Below are positions 2,735-8,112 of a stretch of 38,192 bases of DNA, in pieces. Location of the stretch: IMG/VR virus record IMGVR_UViG_3300045988_043685; one strand, written 5' to 3'. The notes beneath the pieces are model-generated. The model searched no databases and was not told where the DNA came from. It saw only the letters and a program-made list of their open reading frames with translations. The DNA comes from a virus. How positions within the stretch are numbered: position 1 is the stretch's first letter; every line of letters begins with the position of its first letter. The position numbers were made by a program, and so were the translations under genes.

Positions 2735-2754
2735 GGCGGTCCGTTTGGGCCGCC
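2735..2754 (-). terminator. Terminator of the minus-strand accessory operon (possibly bidirectional)
   Basis: GGCGGTCC-gttt-GGGCCGCC hairpin. On the minus strand it is followed by CTTTTTATTAT. It sits between convergent genes. Confidence 0.7.
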
Positions 2755-2766
2755 TAATTAAAAACA

Positions 2767-3078
2767 CTATTTTATTTTATTTCGGCATTTCCGTATCCGT
2801 AGGGCGTTGATTGTTGGATATTCCGATCTGTATACCCCCTTTTTGTATGGAAGGTACATGTTTATGCATGATTTACTTAATTTTAAGATCTCTGCAATTT
2901 CTTGAGTGGTCTTGCCTTTCTCGTATAGGCTTTTCACTTGTTTTGAGGTATCATTTTCATAAACGCCCTCCGTGATGAGGATTTTTCTAACTTTTGCTTC
3001 GCTGATTCCAAACTCAACAGAAACTTTATCGAGCGAGCACAATTTGTTATAAGCCATAACGACATCTAAGCGTTTCAC
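2767..3078 (-). CDS. Accessory operon gene 5: small double-HTH protein
   Basis: GTG start overlaps the upstream stop (GTGA) behind GGGAGGG. It has the HTH-like segments VSVEFGISEAKVRKIL and GKTTQEIAEILKLSKSCINMYL. Confidence 0.7.
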   Translation of the reverse strand: MKRLDVVMAYNKLCSLDKVSVEFGISEAKVRKILITEGVYENDTSKQVKSLYEKGKTTQEIAEILKLSKSCINMYLPYKKGVYRSEYPTINALRIRKCRNKIK

Positions 3079-3767
3079 TGTCCCTCCCTCTTTCTTCTGT
3101 TTCTTTCATTCTGTTTTTGTAAAATCTCCTCTCGGTGTTCTTGATAGTACTTTTTGCTATATTCTTTATAGTAATTCTGGAAATATTCTTTGTTATTCTG
3201 ATAATACTCTTTTTTATATTCAGAATATTTTTCCTTATTCCGTTCTATCGCCTTTTTCGTCATTTCATAATGTTTTTTTGGGTTTCTATTATAGGAATCT
3301 TTTGCATATTTATTTGATTTTAATCTGTCAGGTTCGTATATTCCATCCAGTTTTTTTCGAGCCCTAAGTAAATAAATTGCAATTGTGTTCTCTTTAGTCC
3401 CCATTTCAATTGCTATTTCAGGATTTGTTAATCCAACAAGTTTTAAAAGTAAAGCTTTTCGTTCAACTTCTGGAAGAATAGAAAAGTCTGCATTACGATA
3501 ATTTTCATAATTTATCCTATTCTTATTTACTTTTTCTGATTTTGGAAGGGACTCCCTTTTGACTGGAGGATTAAGAACTTTTTTTGCGGATCTTTTTAGA
3601 GAATCCGATATATTCTGACATGAGCATCCTAACGATGTAGCGATTTCGATAGTCGTTTTTCCGTTCATGGTCAAAGCAATAATTTCCCTTTGCTTTTCGG
3701 TAAGTATGCTCAGGTCATTGTCCTCAAAAATTTTTAAATCTATTTTCAGTTTCCTTCCACCTGCCAT
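3075..3767 (-). CDS. Accessory operon gene 4: protein with two sigma-70 region-4/LuxR-like HTH modules and a K/E/Y-rich tail
   Basis: SD GGAGGTG. It has LTEKQREIIALTMNGKTTIEIATSLGCSCQNISDSLKRSAKK and LPEVERKALLLKLVGLTNPEIAIEMGTKENTIAIYLLRARKKL. The C-terminus is repetitive (KEKYSEYKKEYYQNNKEYFQNYYKEYSKKYYQEH). Confidence 0.75.
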   Translation of the reverse strand: MAGGRKLKIDLKIFEDNDLSILTEKQREIIALTMNGKTTIEIATSLGCSCQNISDSLKRSAKKVLNPPVKRESLPKSEKVNKNRINYENYRNADFSILPEVERKALLLKLVGLTNPEIAIEMGTKENTIAIYLLRARKKLDGIYEPDRLKSNKYAKDSYNRNPKKHYEMTKKAIERNKEKYSEYKKEYYQNNKEYFQNYYKEYSKKYYQEHREEILQKQNERNRRKREGQ

Positions 3768-3779
3768 ACTTCACCTCCG

Positions 3780-4283
3780 TTAAACAAATTCTTTACATGT
3801 TGATTTATCAATGTGGTCAATTGCTGGATCTCCAATATGTGTGGGGCTGTCAATACCTTCTTGTATTTGAGCAATGCAATCTTCTAATGATTTTCCGTGG
3901 ACTTCCGACGCTTCCCACCAATCATAAAAACGATATTTTAGGTATACATTGCGGCAGTCTGATTTTTTATATTGTTCACTGCTTCCAGTACAAAAACTAA
4001 AGCCATATCCGTTCATCCATACAGCTTCACCATTTTTAATATCTTTTTCGTGCATGAAGCGTCTATAACGTTTACAAAATTCTAAGTACTCTTCTTTATT
4101 TTCTTTTTTTCTCTGAAGCCATTGATCTTTTTCAATCCGGCTTTCTTCTTCCGATCCATTTGAACATTCTGTCATAAAAACTTCTCCGTCTGTATCGGTG
4201 TATGTATAAACACATCTTTCGCCTAAACCACTGTAGTACTCAAATTTTAAACTTTCATTTTCTGATAATTTGATAACATCCAT
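3780..4283 (-). CDS. Accessory operon gene 3: hypothetical 167-aa protein
   Basis: ATG behind AGGAAGGA, tightly packed in the operon. No motif recognised. Confidence 0.7.
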   Translation of the reverse strand: MDVIKLSENESLKFEYYSGLGERCVYTYTDTDGEVFMTECSNGSEEESRIEKDQWLQRKKENKEEYLEFCKRYRRFMHEKDIKNGEAVWMNGYGFSFCTGSSEQYKKSDCRNVYLKYRFYDWWEASEVHGKSLEDCIAQIQEGIDSPTHIGDPAIDHIDKSTCKEFV

Positions 4284-4319
4284 TATTATAAATTTCCTTC
4301 CTGCTTAATCAGCGATATT

Positions 4320-4601
4320 TTATATAAAATCATTTACATCACAATTGAAGGCCTCTGCTAATGTTATGGCATTACGCAGGGTTATGTTTCCAAGATCACT
4401 CTCCCCGGATTCGAACTTTTGTATTTGCCGAATGTTTATTCCGGTAGCATCGGCCACTTGCTGCTGTGTCATGTCAGCGAGAGAGCGCTGATACAACAGC
4501 TTGTTGATCGGTTTATTATGACAGTCTCTTCCATAGCTGGATGCGGAGCAGACACCGCATAAACCGTCAGTTCTGATACAATCTGGATATCTTTTCATCA
4601 T
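4320..4601 (-). CDS. Accessory operon gene 2: XRE-family HTH protein with a Cys-rich N-terminus (candidate autoregulator)
   Basis: SD AGGAGG. It has MTQQQVADATGINIRQIQKFESG (XRE HTH), preceded by C-x7-C-x2-C-x8-CH. Confidence 0.75.
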   Translation of the reverse strand: MMKRYPDCIRTDGLCGVCSASSYGRDCHNKPINKLLYQRSLADMTQQQVADATGINIRQIQKFESGESDLGNITLRNAITLAEAFNCDVNDFI

Positions 4602-4608
4602 ACACCTC

Positions 4609-4929
4609 CTACCAAACTAAATTAAATTCATCGTATGCGGGATTACTGGTTTCTACATTGTACCAGTCTCCGTCATTGTAACGCTGTTCTAAAAGCGTTT
4701 CTCCTTCAAGGTCTTCGGAATCGTTGGTAATGTTGAATTCTATTTCGATACCGAGTTCTCTTGCGGCTGCTAATGTGTGATGGTTATCGTTCTGCATTGC
4801 ATACTCGATACCATTAATAAAACCGACATAAGTGCAGGGAATAACTACCTTATCCATGCCTTTAATTTCTTCCATTTTTGTTTCTACGATTTCCCAGTTT
4901 ATGAAATGCTGGCTGCTAATAATGGTCAT
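4609..4929 (-). CDS. Accessory operon gene 1: small, strongly acidic protein with a weak ParB-like signature
   Basis: ATG behind AAGGAAAGGGGA. 106 aa with many D/E and few K/R. NDNHHTLAAARELGIE loosely resembles the DGHHR..AA.ELG ParB N-terminal motif, but the Arg is missing. Confidence 0.7.
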   Translation of the reverse strand: MTIISSQHFINWEIVETKMEEIKGMDKVVIPCTYVGFINGIEYAMQNDNHHTLAAARELGIEIEFNITNDSEDLEGETLLEQRYNDGDWYNVETSNPAYDEFNLVW

Positions 4930-4962
4930 TTTTGTGATCCCCTTTCCTTATCTTGTAATTAC

Positions 4963-4991
4963 ATTATACGCCAATATTGGCGTAAAGTCAA
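4963..4991 (-). promoter_or_regulatory. Consensus sigma-A promoter of the accessory operon with a palindromic operator in the spacer
   Basis: The minus strand reads TTGACT-(17 nt)-TATAAT. The spacer holds the perfect 14-nt palindrome CGCCAATATTGGCG (4969..4982). Confidence 0.8.
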
Positions 4992-5001
4992 TAGGTTTAG
5001 G

Positions 5002-5044
5002 AAAAATAATAAAAATCCTCCATGAGTTTTTAGCTCTTGGAGGA
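5002..5044 (-). terminator. Terminator downstream of the 60-aa gene, insulating the operon promoter
   Basis: TCCTCCA/TGGAGGA 7-bp stem (5016..5044), followed on the minus strand by TTTTTATTATTTTT. Confidence 0.65.
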
Positions 5045-5134
5045 CAAAACGTCACAACGCAGGATAGAAAACGTTATATAAGTATGCTCATTAATCCGCA
5101 GGGCGGTAGCTCCCCCATGGCTCCGCCCTGTCTC

Positions 5135-5498: not shown

Positions 5499-5597
5499 GA
5501 TATGTGTTTGAAATGGTATTATACGCTACATACTTTTTGAAAAACCTCGATTTTAAGCCACTTTTTGCGTGTGTTACTTCCTATTAAATGCAGTAAA

Positions 5598-5644
5598 TAA
5601 CCTTGCCAAGGTTGGGGTCGCGGGTTCGATCCCCGTCTCGCGCT
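5598..5644 (+). other. attP core region: 3' part of a tRNA-Gly(GCC) gene, from anticodon stem to discriminator
   Basis: TAACC-TTGCCAA-GGTTG (anticodon GCC), variable GGGTC, T-arm GCGGG-TTCGATC-CCCGT, 3' acceptor CTCGCGC plus T. There is no D-arm or 5' acceptor strand upstream. Confidence 0.8.
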
Positions 5645-5670
5645 CTTCTAAAAACCTAGTGTTTATGCGG

Positions 5671-5758: not shown

Positions 5759-6976
5759 TCATAGCACATTTCTGGCCCCCTTTTCTCGTGCCTCCAACTT
5801 CCCGGCAGCATACCCGCTAATTAAATCCATCTGCATATCCGTTTCCGCTTGTGCGTAAAACTGCATAAGTGTTTTAGGACTGTTTCCCATAACGGAAGAA
5901 ATAAGGGCTGCATTTGGACAGCGGCGCATGTTGTTCGTCGCGAAGCTTGTGCGAAGTCCGTACAATGTGATTTCAGGCAACAGGAAGGCTCCTTCTGGCA
6001 GTTCTCCGCGCTCTTCCTTGTATTCCTTCATCTGACGGTTATGTGCTGTTAAAAGCCGTTTAAACGCTTCTCCGTACTGATGCGGTTTGATGGGGTTGCC
6101 GTTCTGGCTGACAAAAAGAAAATCGTTATTCCCCCACGAGTGATCTATCATATGATTTTTCCGTTTCCAGATCAGGCGCCGGCGAATGATATCATATAAA
6201 TATTTTGGTATCGGTGGCGTCCGGTGTGATCCGTCATTTTTAAGATCGGTATCCACCGCCCAATTATCATATCCTTTTTCGAAATCGATCATATATGTGG
6301 GCTTGTTGCTTATGCCATTTTCTCGCAGGCCACAGACTTCACCTGGCCGCGCTCCCAGGAGCGCAGAAATTACGAACATGGGATAATAATGTGATAACCT
6401 GACTTCTGGCAGATCGAGAAAGTAGGTGACAATATCATCGTTCCAAGTGACCTTCTTTTTTCTCGGTACTTTGCAACGCTTAATTCCTTTTACCGGATTC
6501 GTGGTAATACATTTCAGCGGCTCCACGGCGAATCCGAATATGTTAGTAAGGATATTGATACATTTGTTTACCACTTCTGGGCTGTATTTCTCTTTCATGA
6601 CATTAACATATCGCTGTATATGCATACTTTTAATGTTATCAATGGTTTCATCTCCAAAAACCTCTTTGATGTAATCCCCGTAAAACTGGGCGTACACTTC
6701 CCATGTGCTATTGGCGTATACCGGCGGTTTCGTGGACTCGTGCCATAATTTGTATACCTCGTCTACCTTTTCGGATTTTTTTTCCTTCGGAGCAGGCGCG
6801 CGGCCGGCCTCGATCTCCAGTATGATTCTTGCCTCGTCCTTTTTGGCTTCTGGCTTAGAATCACGCATGGGGCCGGTAATGGCCCGCTTCTCCTCAGCGT
6901 ACCAGACGTTGGCGAAATACCTCGTTTTTGTTTTCCCAGTCTTTTTAGAGGTATATTTACTTTCCTGAATACTCAT
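5759..6976 (-). CDS. int: Tyrosine integrase (phage integrase family)
   Basis: 405 aa. It has ..LLGARPGEVCGLR.., ..HRTPPIP.., ..LYGLRTSFATNNM.. and a C-terminal ..FY.. catalytic-Tyr region. Adjacent to the tRNA-derived attP. Confidence 0.9.
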   Translation of the reverse strand: MSIQESKYTSKKTGKTKTRYFANVWYAEEKRAITGPMRDSKPEAKKDEARIILEIEAGRAPAPKEKKSEKVDEVYKLWHESTKPPVYANSTWEVYAQFYGDYIKEVFGDETIDNIKSMHIQRYVNVMKEKYSPEVVNKCINILTNIFGFAVEPLKCITTNPVKGIKRCKVPRKKKVTWNDDIVTYFLDLPEVRLSHYYPMFVISALLGARPGEVCGLRENGISNKPTYMIDFEKGYDNWAVDTDLKNDGSHRTPPIPKYLYDIIRRRLIWKRKNHMIDHSWGNNDFLFVSQNGNPIKPHQYGEAFKRLLTAHNRQMKEYKEERGELPEGAFLLPEITLYGLRTSFATNNMRRCPNAALISSVMGNSPKTLMQFYAQAETDMQMDLISGYAAGKLEAREKGARNVL

Positions 6977-7475: not shown

Positions 7476-7634
7476 ATGACAACTGATGATATAAAAATCC
7501 TAACTATTCAACGTATAGAGGCAAGCGATGATATGGAATATATACTTGCTGTCTATACTTTTGCTAATTCCTATCCAGATAAAAGCAGGTCGGATAAAAT
7601 TAAATGTCCTCAGAACGCTGCTTTAAATTGTTAA
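7476..7634 (+). CDS. Small 52-aa protein downstream of the SOS promoter (candidate antirepressor)
   Basis: ATG 7476 behind GGGAGG; the tracker start at 7410 is rejected. An extended -10 TGTTATAAT lies at 7413..7421. The 3' end overlaps the convergent repressor gene by 35 nt. Confidence 0.55.
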   Translation: MTTDDIKILTIQRIEASDDMEYILAVYTFANSYPDKSRSDKIKCPQNAALNC

Positions 7635-7986
7635 GAAAATCAAGCCCCCATTCTATTAAAACTTTACGGTTAGCAGGGTCCAGTTTTCTATATGTATCAA
7701 CAAATGCTTCGAAAACTGGATCCTTCTCGCCTAATAATACAGCGGCCTTAGCTATAAGGTCGTTTTTTGGTGGGGCTGTAAACATATCACCTTCTCCAGT
7801 GCGGAGCCATTCTTCGTTGACGTTAAATGTTTTACACATATTATTAATTACTGAACTCGATGGATTCCGTCTTCCGGTTTCATAATTTGTAAGAACATTA
7901 GCTGTTGTTCCTATTTTTTCTGCAAATGTCTGTTGAGTTAAATCTAAATCTTTTCTAATTTTTTTAATTCTATCTTTCATTTCCAT
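7600..7986 (-). CDS. CI-like XRE-family repressor without an S24 peptidase domain
   Basis: Start MEMKDRIKKIRK at 7986 behind AAAGGTGGTGA. It has LTQQTFAEKIGTTANVLTNYETG (HTH). It is 128 aa, and the C-terminus has no Ser/Lys protease motifs. Confidence 0.8.
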   Translation of the reverse strand: MEMKDRIKKIRKDLDLTQQTFAEKIGTTANVLTNYETGRRNPSSSVINNMCKTFNVNEEWLRTGEGDMFTAPPKNDLIAKAAVLLGEKDPVFEAFVDTYRKLDPANRKVLIEWGLDFLNNLKQRSEDI

Positions 7987-8013
7987 CTTATTATCACCAC
8001 CTTTTATGTTATA

Positions 8014-8042
8014 AGTATAAACCATAAATACGTCATTGTCAA
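8014..8042 (-). promoter_or_regulatory. Repressor (maintenance-type) promoter
   Basis: The minus strand reads TTGACA-(17 nt)-TATACT. Confidence 0.65.
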
Positions 8043-8112
8043 GAAAATACGTCAATGACGAAAAAATATATTGACAAATCCGTCAAAGAAGAGTATGATA
8101 ACGTCATAGACG
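8031..8112. promoter_or_regulatory. Operator cluster of the genetic switch (CGTC-N3-GACG family)
   Basis: CGTCATTGTCA (8031..8041), CGTCAATGACG (8050..8060), CGTCAAAGAAG (8081..8091) and CGTCATAGACG (8102..8112). They overlap the -35, spacer and +1 regions of the divergent promoters. Confidence 0.6.
8071..8099 (+). promoter_or_regulatory. Early rightward promoter
   Basis: TTGACA-(17 nt)-TATGAT. Confidence 0.7.

Follow-up and report, generated by a model that had tools for sequence, protein, structure and literature searches.

The subject of this analysis is a five-gene operon of a temperate phage in the IMG/VR virus record IMGVR_UViG_3300045988_043685, a stretch of 38,192 nucleotides (nt) that we call, at its full length, the window. 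The window represents a temperate phage in excised or circularly permuted form, and the operon occupies positions 2767 to 4991 on its minus strand, between the lysis cassette and attP as already stated in a preliminary description of this DNA. All five genes (g1 to g5) lie on one strand, encode products of 93 to 230 amino acids (aa), and are separated by gaps of at most 36 nt, with GGAGG-type Shine-Dalgarno sequences 5' of the genes and a GTGA in which the stop codon of g4 overlaps the start codon of g5. The genes and transcription signals are as follows:

4609-4929, minus strand: g1, 106 aa
4320-4601, minus strand: g2, 93 aa
3780-4283, minus strand: g3, 167 aa
3075-3767, minus strand: g4, 230 aa
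2767-3078, minus strand: g5, 103 aa, GTG start
4963-4991, minus strand: sigma-70-type promoter with -35 element TTGACT (4986-4991), 17-nt spacer, and -10 element TATAAT (4963-4968); score 11/12
4967-4984: perfect 18-nt palindrome TACGCCAATATTGGCGTA with core CGCCAATATTGGCG at 4969-4982, filling the spacer and covering the first two bases of the -10 element; predicted operator of g2
2735-2754, minus strand: hairpin of the terminator closing the operon, then a uridine (U) run CUUUUUAUUAU; folding free energy (dG) -12.1 kcal/mol, z score (z) -1.9; between the convergent ends of g5 and the endolysin gene
5015-5045, minus strand: hairpin of a terminator 5' of the promoter, then UUUUUAUUAUUUUU with the U run at 5001-5014; dG -17.1 kcal/mol, z -2.9

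Much of this anatomy is as first described, including the tight packing with its Shine-Dalgarno sequences and GTGA overlap, the promoter, and the closing terminator, which our consensus scan had missed because of one mismatch in the stem. The palindrome in the spacer is likewise present and unique, but it is a perfect 18-nt palindrome overlapping the -10 element and not one of 14 nt, and the terminator at 5015-5045 is an addition to the earlier list. With hairpins at both of its ends the transcription unit is insulated on either side, and the upstream one shields it from transcription of the integrase gene and of a 60-aa open reading frame (ORF). As a class, promoter-like sites are not enriched in the region (21 compared to 18.2 ± 3.9 in shuffled sequences), and we take the operon promoter as valid on the grounds of its conservation upstream of g1 homologues, not of its scan score. 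The core CGCCAATATTGGCG occurs only once in the 38-kb window with up to 3 mismatches allowed, suggesting that the palindrome serves the operon promoter alone; control of other phage promoters by g2 was considered and rejected since no second copy exists in the window even at 3 mismatches. A 10-nt palindrome directly 3' of the -10 element (TGTAATTACA) was set aside because it is not conserved in the related locus L020 (loci are cited here by L numbers and individual proteins by P numbers). The block is also AT-rich, as had been noted by eye, with a GC content of 0.358 compared to 0.455 for the rest—the lowest among all 2225-bp windows of the 38 kb and about 3 standard deviations under their mean. 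Genes g3 to g5 are its most AT-rich part (0.32 to 0.375, compared to 0.39 to 0.43 for g1 and g2).

The two leading genes

The first gene encodes the small and very acidic protein that had been described (net charge -16, isoelectric point (pI) 4.1), and acidity runs through its whole family (net -6 to -22). The family counts more than 200 homologues, nearly all of about 106 aa, and a profile search of 1.8 billion representatives gave 168 g1 relatives. Its likeness to ParB had been put down to a degenerate motif but goes further than that and lies at the level of the fold. The AlphaFold model is of high quality (predicted local distance difference test (pLDDT) 96.4), and its informative Foldseek matches are nearly all members of the ParB/sulfiredoxin (Srx) superfamily (probability 0.94-1.0, template modeling (TM) score ~0.5-0.64, with weak E values of 0.004-0.05), among them Atu1540 (2hwj), sulfiredoxin, SerK, ParB, PadC, and the "ParB" of Salmonella phage SPC32H. 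Judging by this model, g1 is a single-domain ParB/sulfiredoxin fold, the domain of phrog_4807. Residues S5, S6, Q7, H8, P31, C32, T52, D86, G87, and D88 are invariant in our alignment A1, with H50 and H51 nearly so, and the motifs SSQR and DGHHR found in part of the wider family are the classical ParB-like signature. The clade of the window has DGHHT instead, with the arginine of SQR replaced by H8 and that of DGHHR by T52, so that the phosphate-motif arginine looked for (GxxR/DGHHR) is absent from it. A few members of the wider family touch DUF1015 and ParBc_2, while g1 itself stays below the gathering score of Pfam ParB_N (PF02195) and has no Pfam match even at E <= 1; a search of PDB sequences with its profile came back empty.

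Compared to the other members of the superfamily (single-domain phage versions, DdrB-like ParB, Osa, and HerB), g1 shares the fold and the DGHH(R/T) and SQ(R/H) motifs but stands apart by its extreme acidity, its sub-threshold ParB_N score, its replaced arginines, and the lack of a helix-turn-helix (HTH) or dimerization domain. Specific kinship with the DdrB-like ParB domain of phage P1 was rejected (hhalign probability <1%). Portal protein P0162 and MuF protein P0232 both end in a g1 domain, which in P0213 lies C-terminal to a ParB_N-like domain, and the virion fusions resemble other injected ParB domains. C-terminal fusions of portal and MuF proteins are viewed as effectors injected together with the DNA, and some MuF fusions are toxins (PMC5512222). 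A 2025 survey of the ParB-CTPase fold records single-domain phage versions of about 100 aa whose function is unknown (PMC12704722).

More distant relatives extend well beyond the loci discussed below. Family member P0227 matches Salmonella P22-like phages and Burkholderia phages, where the genes lie among early or unannotated genes with little functional information, and distant relatives with about 32% identity to P0227 are found in the nin region of P22-like phages (Salmonella phage SEN34, L076, 3932-4381). Some of these Salmonella relatives carry the label "chromosome partitioning protein," probably in error for a single-domain ParB-fold accessory gene. Two distant members sit on contigs too short for their loci to be read.

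The product of g2 is an XRE-type HTH protein with a cysteine-rich N-terminus as described earlier, with HTH_3 (PF01381) matching residues 41-91 at 36.6 bits (cut-off 23). Residues 1-30 (4511-4598) carry four cysteines spaced as C-x6-C-x2-C-x8-C(H), a segment kept without change by 9 diverged homologues (identity as low as 42%) and lacking any match in Pfam or PDB sequences. This Cys4 segment is a candidate zinc (Zn) or iron-sulfur (Fe-S) site on the XRE repressor of a phage of anaerobes. Searched against the PDB, the family profile finds 434 Cro, the restriction-modification (R-M) controller (C) proteins C.AhdI and C.BclI, and HipB as nearest solved relatives. All of these are dimeric dyad binders, and 434 Cro and the C proteins share with g2 the format of a small XRE autoregulator at a dyad. 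The operon differs from C protein systems by its lack of R-M genes, by the added Cys4 segment, and by a predicted operator that fills the promoter spacer and does not lie upstream of the -35 element. In single-sequence searches the top PDB match of g2 is the N-terminal HTH of AcrIIA15 (E 0.005), but with the family profile this match is no better than 434 Cro, the C proteins, or HipB, and we discarded it as evidence. We predict with good confidence that g2 is an autorepressor of its own operon, similar to the anti-CRISPR-associated (Aca) proteins; it has the XRE HTH and is co-inherited with g1 and the palindrome, and no named Aca family was matched in the libraries searched.

Related loci and the link to AcrIC5

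Our comparison set comprises 47 loci with g1 homologues and 37 distinct upstream regions. Nearly all of these regions (36/37) have a promoter scoring at least 10/12 at 26-47 nt before the g1 start, and 22/37 have a dyad between its -35 and -10 elements, compared to 5.3 ± 2.0 (maximum 10) in shuffled sequences. The dyads differ from locus to locus and are kept symmetric by paired changes—CGCCAATATTGGCG in the window, CGCCTATATAGGCG in L020, CGCCCATATGGGCG in L036, CGCTAATATTAGCG in L044, and further symmetric versions in L032 (GCCTAATATTAGGC), L040 (CCCTACAtTGTAGGG), and L058/L067 (GTTTATATAAAC), with a putative operator variant CGCCCTTTTGGGCG in L035. Shifting sequence with preserved symmetry is the pattern expected of an operator that co-evolves with its repressor. 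The divergence of g1 and g2 runs in parallel (96/90, 86/82, 61/63, 64/53, and 55/40% identity), and g4 and g5 are much more diverged than these two. Judged by such comparisons, the conserved core consists of g1 and a DNA-binding regulator behind the promoter and its dyad, and the genes beyond it vary.

Neither the family of the regulator nor its place is fixed. Other clades have a 157-aa protein with C-terminal HTH, a ribbon-helix-helix (RHH) protein, or a Zn-ribbon + XRE protein. In L100, L040, L046, and L053, other genes come between g1 and the regulator, and in L043 and L044 g1 is solitary. In the L046-L072 clade, a large one of IMG/VR contigs (example L046, 4839-6967), g1 is followed by a 44-aa ORF and the 157-aa HTH protein, and these genes are divergent from terS-terL-portal. 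The cargo of sister loci consists of a Zn-ribbon/NUMOD3-like family (~167 aa) and of CKCDCG-repeat proteins, and the combination of g4 and g5 occurs in the window and L034 only.

Among the three distal genes, g3 encodes an acidic protein (pI 4.9, 7 cysteines) that remains the unknown 167-aa protein of the first description. It is an orphan with no family match in the libraries scanned and 2 homologues among 5.8 billion proteins, and its AlphaFold model (pLDDT 62) gives Foldseek TM scores of at most 0.27, at which a fold search is meaningless. The gene is missing from the otherwise collinear L034, and the alignment of the two loci breaks exactly around g3, as left by an insertion or deletion; at the DNA level, the core of the window and L034 is 89% identical and g4-g5 only 71%.

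The basic protein encoded by g4 had been described as carrying two sigma-70 region-4-like HTHs and a repetitive tail but no region 2, which a Pfam-type scan bears out: it matches Sigma70_r4_2 (E 5e-18) and GerE in two stretches each, has a helical tail rich in K, E, and Y, and has no Sigma70_r2 match, while its TIGR02937 match covers the C-terminal part of that model only. With region 4/LuxR-type HTHs twice and no region 2, a role as sigma factor is ruled out, and nothing supports the earlier proposal that it interferes with RNA polymerase or sigma. The protein is better read as a putative tandem-HTH DNA binder, part of the pool of DNA-binding proteins at these loci. Its family is small (10 homologue clusters), and it is 37% identical to a double-region-4 protein of Blautia phage Montmirail that occupies the same genomic slot. 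The K/E/Y-rich tail (3075-3330; KEYYQNNKEYFQNYYKEY...) is also found in L030 (2630-3571), where it closes a 313-aa fusion protein behind a Zn-ribbon/NUMOD3-like part and an HTH, and by this recurrence it looks like a portable module.

The last gene, g5, also encodes a basic protein and is found in the window and L034 only (61% identity). The double HTH proposed for it has moderate support, with one HTH at residues 45-76 (Sigma70_r4, HTH_7, and GerE, all under curated cut-offs) and a weaker one at 2-33 (HTH_28), besides a match to Cbp1-like repeat HTHs (E 8e-8). PHROG matches of g4 and g5 are annotated as sigma factor, HNH or homing endonuclease, and HTH DNA-binding protein, and searches of PDB sequences with g1, g3, and g4 gave chance or generic HTH matches only.

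A tested inhibitor of type I-C CRISPR systems, AcrIC5, has orthologues in Firmicutes and Actinobacteria (PMC7913775), and homologues of it, assigned by their score against Pfam PF22147 (cut-off 27 bits), lie directly 3' of g1 in four lineages (L040-42, 87.4 bits; L100, 81.1; L029, 62.1; L030, 33.7). In L040-42, this is a 65-aa gene 25 nt 3' of g1, and the same arrangement recurs in L029 and L030, which are two metagenome-assembled genomes of different genera. Among the AcrIC5 loci, L100 is the closest analogue of the window: a holin-like ORF and a hairpin are followed by TTGACA-TTACGCCCAATTGGGTG-TATAAT, g1, AcrIC5, and a g2 homologue with Cys4 segment and HTH_3 (50.5% identical to g2 of the window), convergent with an integrase gene. 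The position of AcrIC5 between g1 and g2 in this locus puts g2 into the canonical place of an aca gene. Cargo of g1 operons is also found directly 3' of AcrIC5 in loci without g1, namely the Zn-ribbon/NUMOD3-like family in L113, L115, and L120, the CKCDCG-repeat proteins in L121 and L090, and the family of an AP2-domain "HNH endonuclease" of phage Montmirail in L117.

The locus of the latter phage itself (L073, ON453898, 1000-3130) is convergent with the endolysin gene and includes a 60-aa AbrB-like gene, the palindrome ATTCGTACGAAT in triplicate with one copy in the spacer of a TTGACC...TATAAT promoter, a Zn-ribbon/AP2 protein annotated as "HNH endonuclease," and the double-region-4 protein annotated as "RNA polymerase sigma factor." It is probably another acr-type locus, here in a cultured phage. 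The presence of AP2 and double-region-4 proteins in this one slot ties g4 to the AcrIC5 gene pool, albeit at one remove.

Interpretation of the operon

We favor, with modest confidence, the reading that the operon is an insulated, self-repressing locus of the anti-CRISPR/anti-defense (acr-aca) type in a temperate phage of gut Clostridia. Such a layout had been proposed from the window alone, and it has held up with the conserved promoter and symmetric dyads, the AcrIC5 homologues behind g1 in four lineages, and the gene order of L100. Aca proteins with HTH or RHH fold repress strong acr promoters via inverted repeats (PMC6765145, PMC9410906, PMC13551039). The operon shares with acr-aca operons of the Aca1/Aca2, Aca14 (RHH), and AcrIIA1/AcrIIA15 types the strong promoter with an inverted repeat over its core elements, the small same-strand genes with short gaps, the HTH regulator (RHH in sister clades), and a mosaic location on a mobile element, as seen from its place at the prophage end, the insertion or deletion at g3, and the diverged cargo; in orthologous operons, it further shares a validated Acr family in AcrIC5. 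It differs from them in that the window has no known Acr or Aca, that conservation is anchored in g1, the first gene, and not in the regulator alone, and that the regulator comes second and not last, with an extra Cys4 segment and two more DNA-binding proteins behind it.

The location fits as well, as the attR-adjacent position suspected to be a moron hotspot is what we see in integrated copies and matches the clostridial AcrIB2 locus (phages phiCD38-2 and phiCDHM13), which lies directly after the lysis genes, before the att or lysogenic-conversion end, and is highly transcribed in lysogens (bioRxiv 10.1101/2023.05.22.541795). In that work, acr genes are accompanied by AP2 DNA-binding proteins (bioRxiv 10.1101/2023.05.22.541795). 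Clostridial acr loci and g1 loci have in common small acidic proteins next to DNA binders of Zn-ribbon/AP2 type, and both occur on sipho- and myovirus backbones. In contrast to those loci, the window lacks AcrIC5, AcrIB2, and AP2 proteins and has tandem region-4 HTH proteins instead.

From the conservation of promoter and dyad, the g1 fold and its fusions, and the AcrIC5 adjacency, we infer a scheme in which host sigma-A RNA polymerase would fire the near-consensus promoter upon entry of the phage DNA, and perhaps also, at a low rate, in the lysogen. The first product made would be g1 as an early effector on a host immune component, nucleotide, or nucleic acid, which other phages would deliver ready-made as a C-terminal domain of portal or MuF virion proteins. 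As g2 builds up, its dimer would bind the 18-bp palindrome between the -35 and -10 elements, occlude the polymerase, and shut off the operon the way Aca proteins do. The distal genes would be exchangeable cargo from a pool shared with known anti-CRISPR loci, with g3 as a candidate lineage-specific inhibitor and g4 and g5 as putative extra DNA binders, taking the local place of the Zn-ribbon/AP2 proteins that clostridial acr loci often carry. In this scheme the binding of g2 to the palindrome, any anti-defense product and its target, and the timing of expression are inferred.

Several observations weigh against an anti-defense operon. No known Acr, anti-defense, or Aca family was matched by g1 to g5 in the libraries scanned, and homologues of a demonstrated Acr occur only in the orthologous operons (L029, L030, L040-42, and L100). 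Among some 47 g1 loci, the lineages with AcrIC5 that can be counted as independent number about 4. Viewed from the other side, a g1-family gene lies just 5' of AcrIC5 in a minority of 4/53 AcrIC5 loci from IMG/VR, and g3, g4, and g5 were not found in any of these 53. The large L046 clade has kept the promoter, shows no convincing dyad, and adjoins terminase genes. As an Acr, g1 itself would be atypical, and the initial idea that a small acidic first product is the Acr does not carry over well to a ParB/Srx-fold family that is conserved so widely and keeps invariant polar residues; the conservation of g1 goes well beyond that of typical Acrs, its invariant polar residues appear to point to a ligand or active site, no ParB/Srx-fold protein is mentioned in a catalogue of 268 anti-defense proteins, and distant relatives sit in the nin region of Salmonella P22-like phages. 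Furthermore, three or more of the five products have DNA-binding domains, a share that is uncommon in acr operons and would suit a regulatory cassette just as well.

We regard a cassette for transcription reprogramming or lysogenic conversion as unlikely, though the best of the alternatives. There, g2, g4, and g5 would act on promoters of the host or of competing phages, with g1 as a nucleotide-binding switch in trans, and the closest analogy would be HerB, a ParB-like, CTP-dependent reprogrammer of host expression from plasmid leading regions that is made right after DNA entry and serves as precedent of a ParB-like early establishment factor (PMC13370423). Besides the share of DNA-binding products, the slot between lysis genes and attR is the classical lysogenic-conversion position, fusions of ParB-fold and Sigma70 domains that bind ATP exist (PMC12704722), and the single-domain phage proteins of that survey have the size of g1. 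However, g1 is strongly acidic and has no DNA-binding domain, its partner regulators come from unrelated families across clades, which argues against a dedicated g1-regulator machine, and g4 and g5 occur in a very narrow lineage only, compared to the widespread g1. The predicted g2 operator is found nowhere else in the phage genome, and the repeated adjacency of AcrIC5 would be left unexplained.

A toxin-antitoxin, abortive-infection, or superinfection-exclusion module is highly unlikely. In such a module, g1 would be a ParB-like nuclease toxin followed by g2 as HTH antitoxin and autorepressor, and a small protein and an HTH protein behind a promoter with palindromic operator do fit a type II system, with the same gene order as in higBA and mqsRA; DNase activity is known among ParB/Srx domains, and the toxins among the MuF C-terminal fusions have been mentioned above (PMC5512222). 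The antitoxin MqsA, with two CxxC pairs, has an XRE HTH alongside its Zn-binding domain. Weak matches of g2 to antitoxin models (HipB/Y4mF, and the MqsA family with E 0.048) concern its HTH part only; unlike in mqsRA, the four cysteines of g2 lie within one 30-aa segment and not in two CxxC pairs, and g1 is an acidic ParB fold that sometimes stands alone. In PADLOC-DB v2, no defense or toxin-antitoxin family was matched beyond a generic HTH for g2 (E ~1e-3) and the C-terminus of a CARF-HTH model for the g4 HTH, with nothing for g1, g3, and g5, and for want of any meaningful match we also dropped the defense module that the preliminary description had offered as alternative. Neither Pfam nor NCBIfam gives a toxin family for g1, whose family is very acidic, unlike nucleic-acid-targeting toxins, and whose SQR and DGHHR arginines are replaced in the window clade (H8 and T52). 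In addition, AcrIC5 and other genes often come between g1 and the regulator, and g1 has no co-directional partner in L043, L044, and the Salmonella nin region.

Least probable of all is a selfish-DNA remnant or a set of the phage's own regulators without conflict role, with g4, g5, and the sister Zn-ribbon/AP2/NUMOD-like proteins derived from degenerate homing endonucleases or late/lysogeny regulators, since the PHROG annotations of g4 and g5, the "HNH endonuclease" label on the AP2-carrying Montmirail homologue of a neighboring family, and the mosaic, AT-rich cargo that speak for it are set against the lack of a nuclease domain in any of these proteins, an insulated and strongly promoted operon that is identical in hundreds of metagenomic contigs across phage backbones and belongs to neither the cI/cro region (7600-8100) nor the late operon, and a conservation of g1 and g2 and association with AcrIC5 for which it does not account.

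If the operon is indeed an anti-defense locus, it is of a known kind, while a g1-type leader, a Cys4-XRE repressor, and tandem region-4 cargo are undescribed in the libraries and papers searched. It is possible, though doubtful, that the g1 family is the first ParB/Srx-fold anti-defense effector, perhaps nucleotide-directed or enzymatic and deployed as first gene or virion fusion, and that g2 founds a new Aca family, with a metal or Fe-S cluster bound at its invariant Cys4 segment. An inhibitory g1 would bring a new fold and probably a new mode of action, and it would give a function to the single-domain ParB-fold phage proteins of about 100 aa. The Cys4-XRE protein would then be a new Aca-type repressor that could couple anti-defense expression to the redox state of the anaerobic host. 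To our knowledge, anti-defense genes of phages on the dominant gut Clostridia (Oscillospiraceae and Lachnospiraceae) are almost unknown, and most such phages are uncultured. Together with the promoter-dyad signature, g1 may offer a guilt-by-association anchor for counter-defense genes similar to what aca genes are in Proteobacteria.

Genomic setting and mobility

The operon follows attP and the 60-aa ORF in this order and is convergent with the endolysin and holin genes. The other features of this region are:

5759-6976, minus strand: integrase gene
~5582-5639: attP core, made up of the 3' portion of a tRNA gene, which Rfam detects as tRNA at 22 bits, short of the gathering score
5135-5317, minus strand: 60-aa ORF, without family match, which always accompanies the operon
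5092-5130, minus strand: GC-rich hairpin after the 60-aa ORF, without U run, then GGATTAATGAG; dG -20.6 kcal/mol, z -2.6

This 42-nt attP core recurs at the prophage/host junctions of L001, L006, and L009. Rfam gives only the partial tRNA at attP for the RNA elements looked for, with no CRISPR-repeat match that would point to CRISPR-repeat-like RNA anti-CRISPRs. In a public assembly collection, proteins identical to g1 are indexed in 350 blocks and those identical to g4 in 256, which means that any function of theirs acts at scale in natural communities. On all contigs read (24/24 for each of the two look-ups), the 60-aa ORF and g1 to g5 lie at the integrase-distal end of the prophage, adjoining host genes and the lysis cassette, and the operon is thus on the attR side of integrated copies. 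Identity with the window ends upstream of the 60-aa ORF at 5652, 5465, or 5437 (L001, L002, and L004), representing three different host junctions, and the carrier prophages have tail modules of three types (siphovirus Prophage_tail, collagen/BppU, and myovirus baseplate). The 60-aa ORF, operon, and lysis cassette are shared at 100% protein identity across prophages with these three right ends and three tail types, so that the cassette is a mosaic unit common to different phages. At the sequence level, this shared block indicates recent modular exchange among distinct temperate phages. Among deposited phage genomes, blastn found no similar DNA, and tblastn found no g1 homologue in 50,697 of them, including phages of Clostridioides difficile.

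Further along the window, a cI-like HTH repressor gene (7600-8055, minus strand) lies with divergent promoters scoring 11/12 at 8042 (minus strand) and 8071 (plus strand). This 7600-8100 region is the probable lysis-lysogeny switch, distinct from the operon. A prophage with a 61%-identical g1-g2 module (L020, 7160-7815) stands next to the sporulation genes cotJA and cotJB, followed by 31 codons (MWNYEKRLQYPVHIKTPNAKIAKIILTQYGGP) that we take to be the N-terminus of CotJC and then by phage DNA. This prophage appears to sit inside cotJC and may be a sporulation-gene intervening element.

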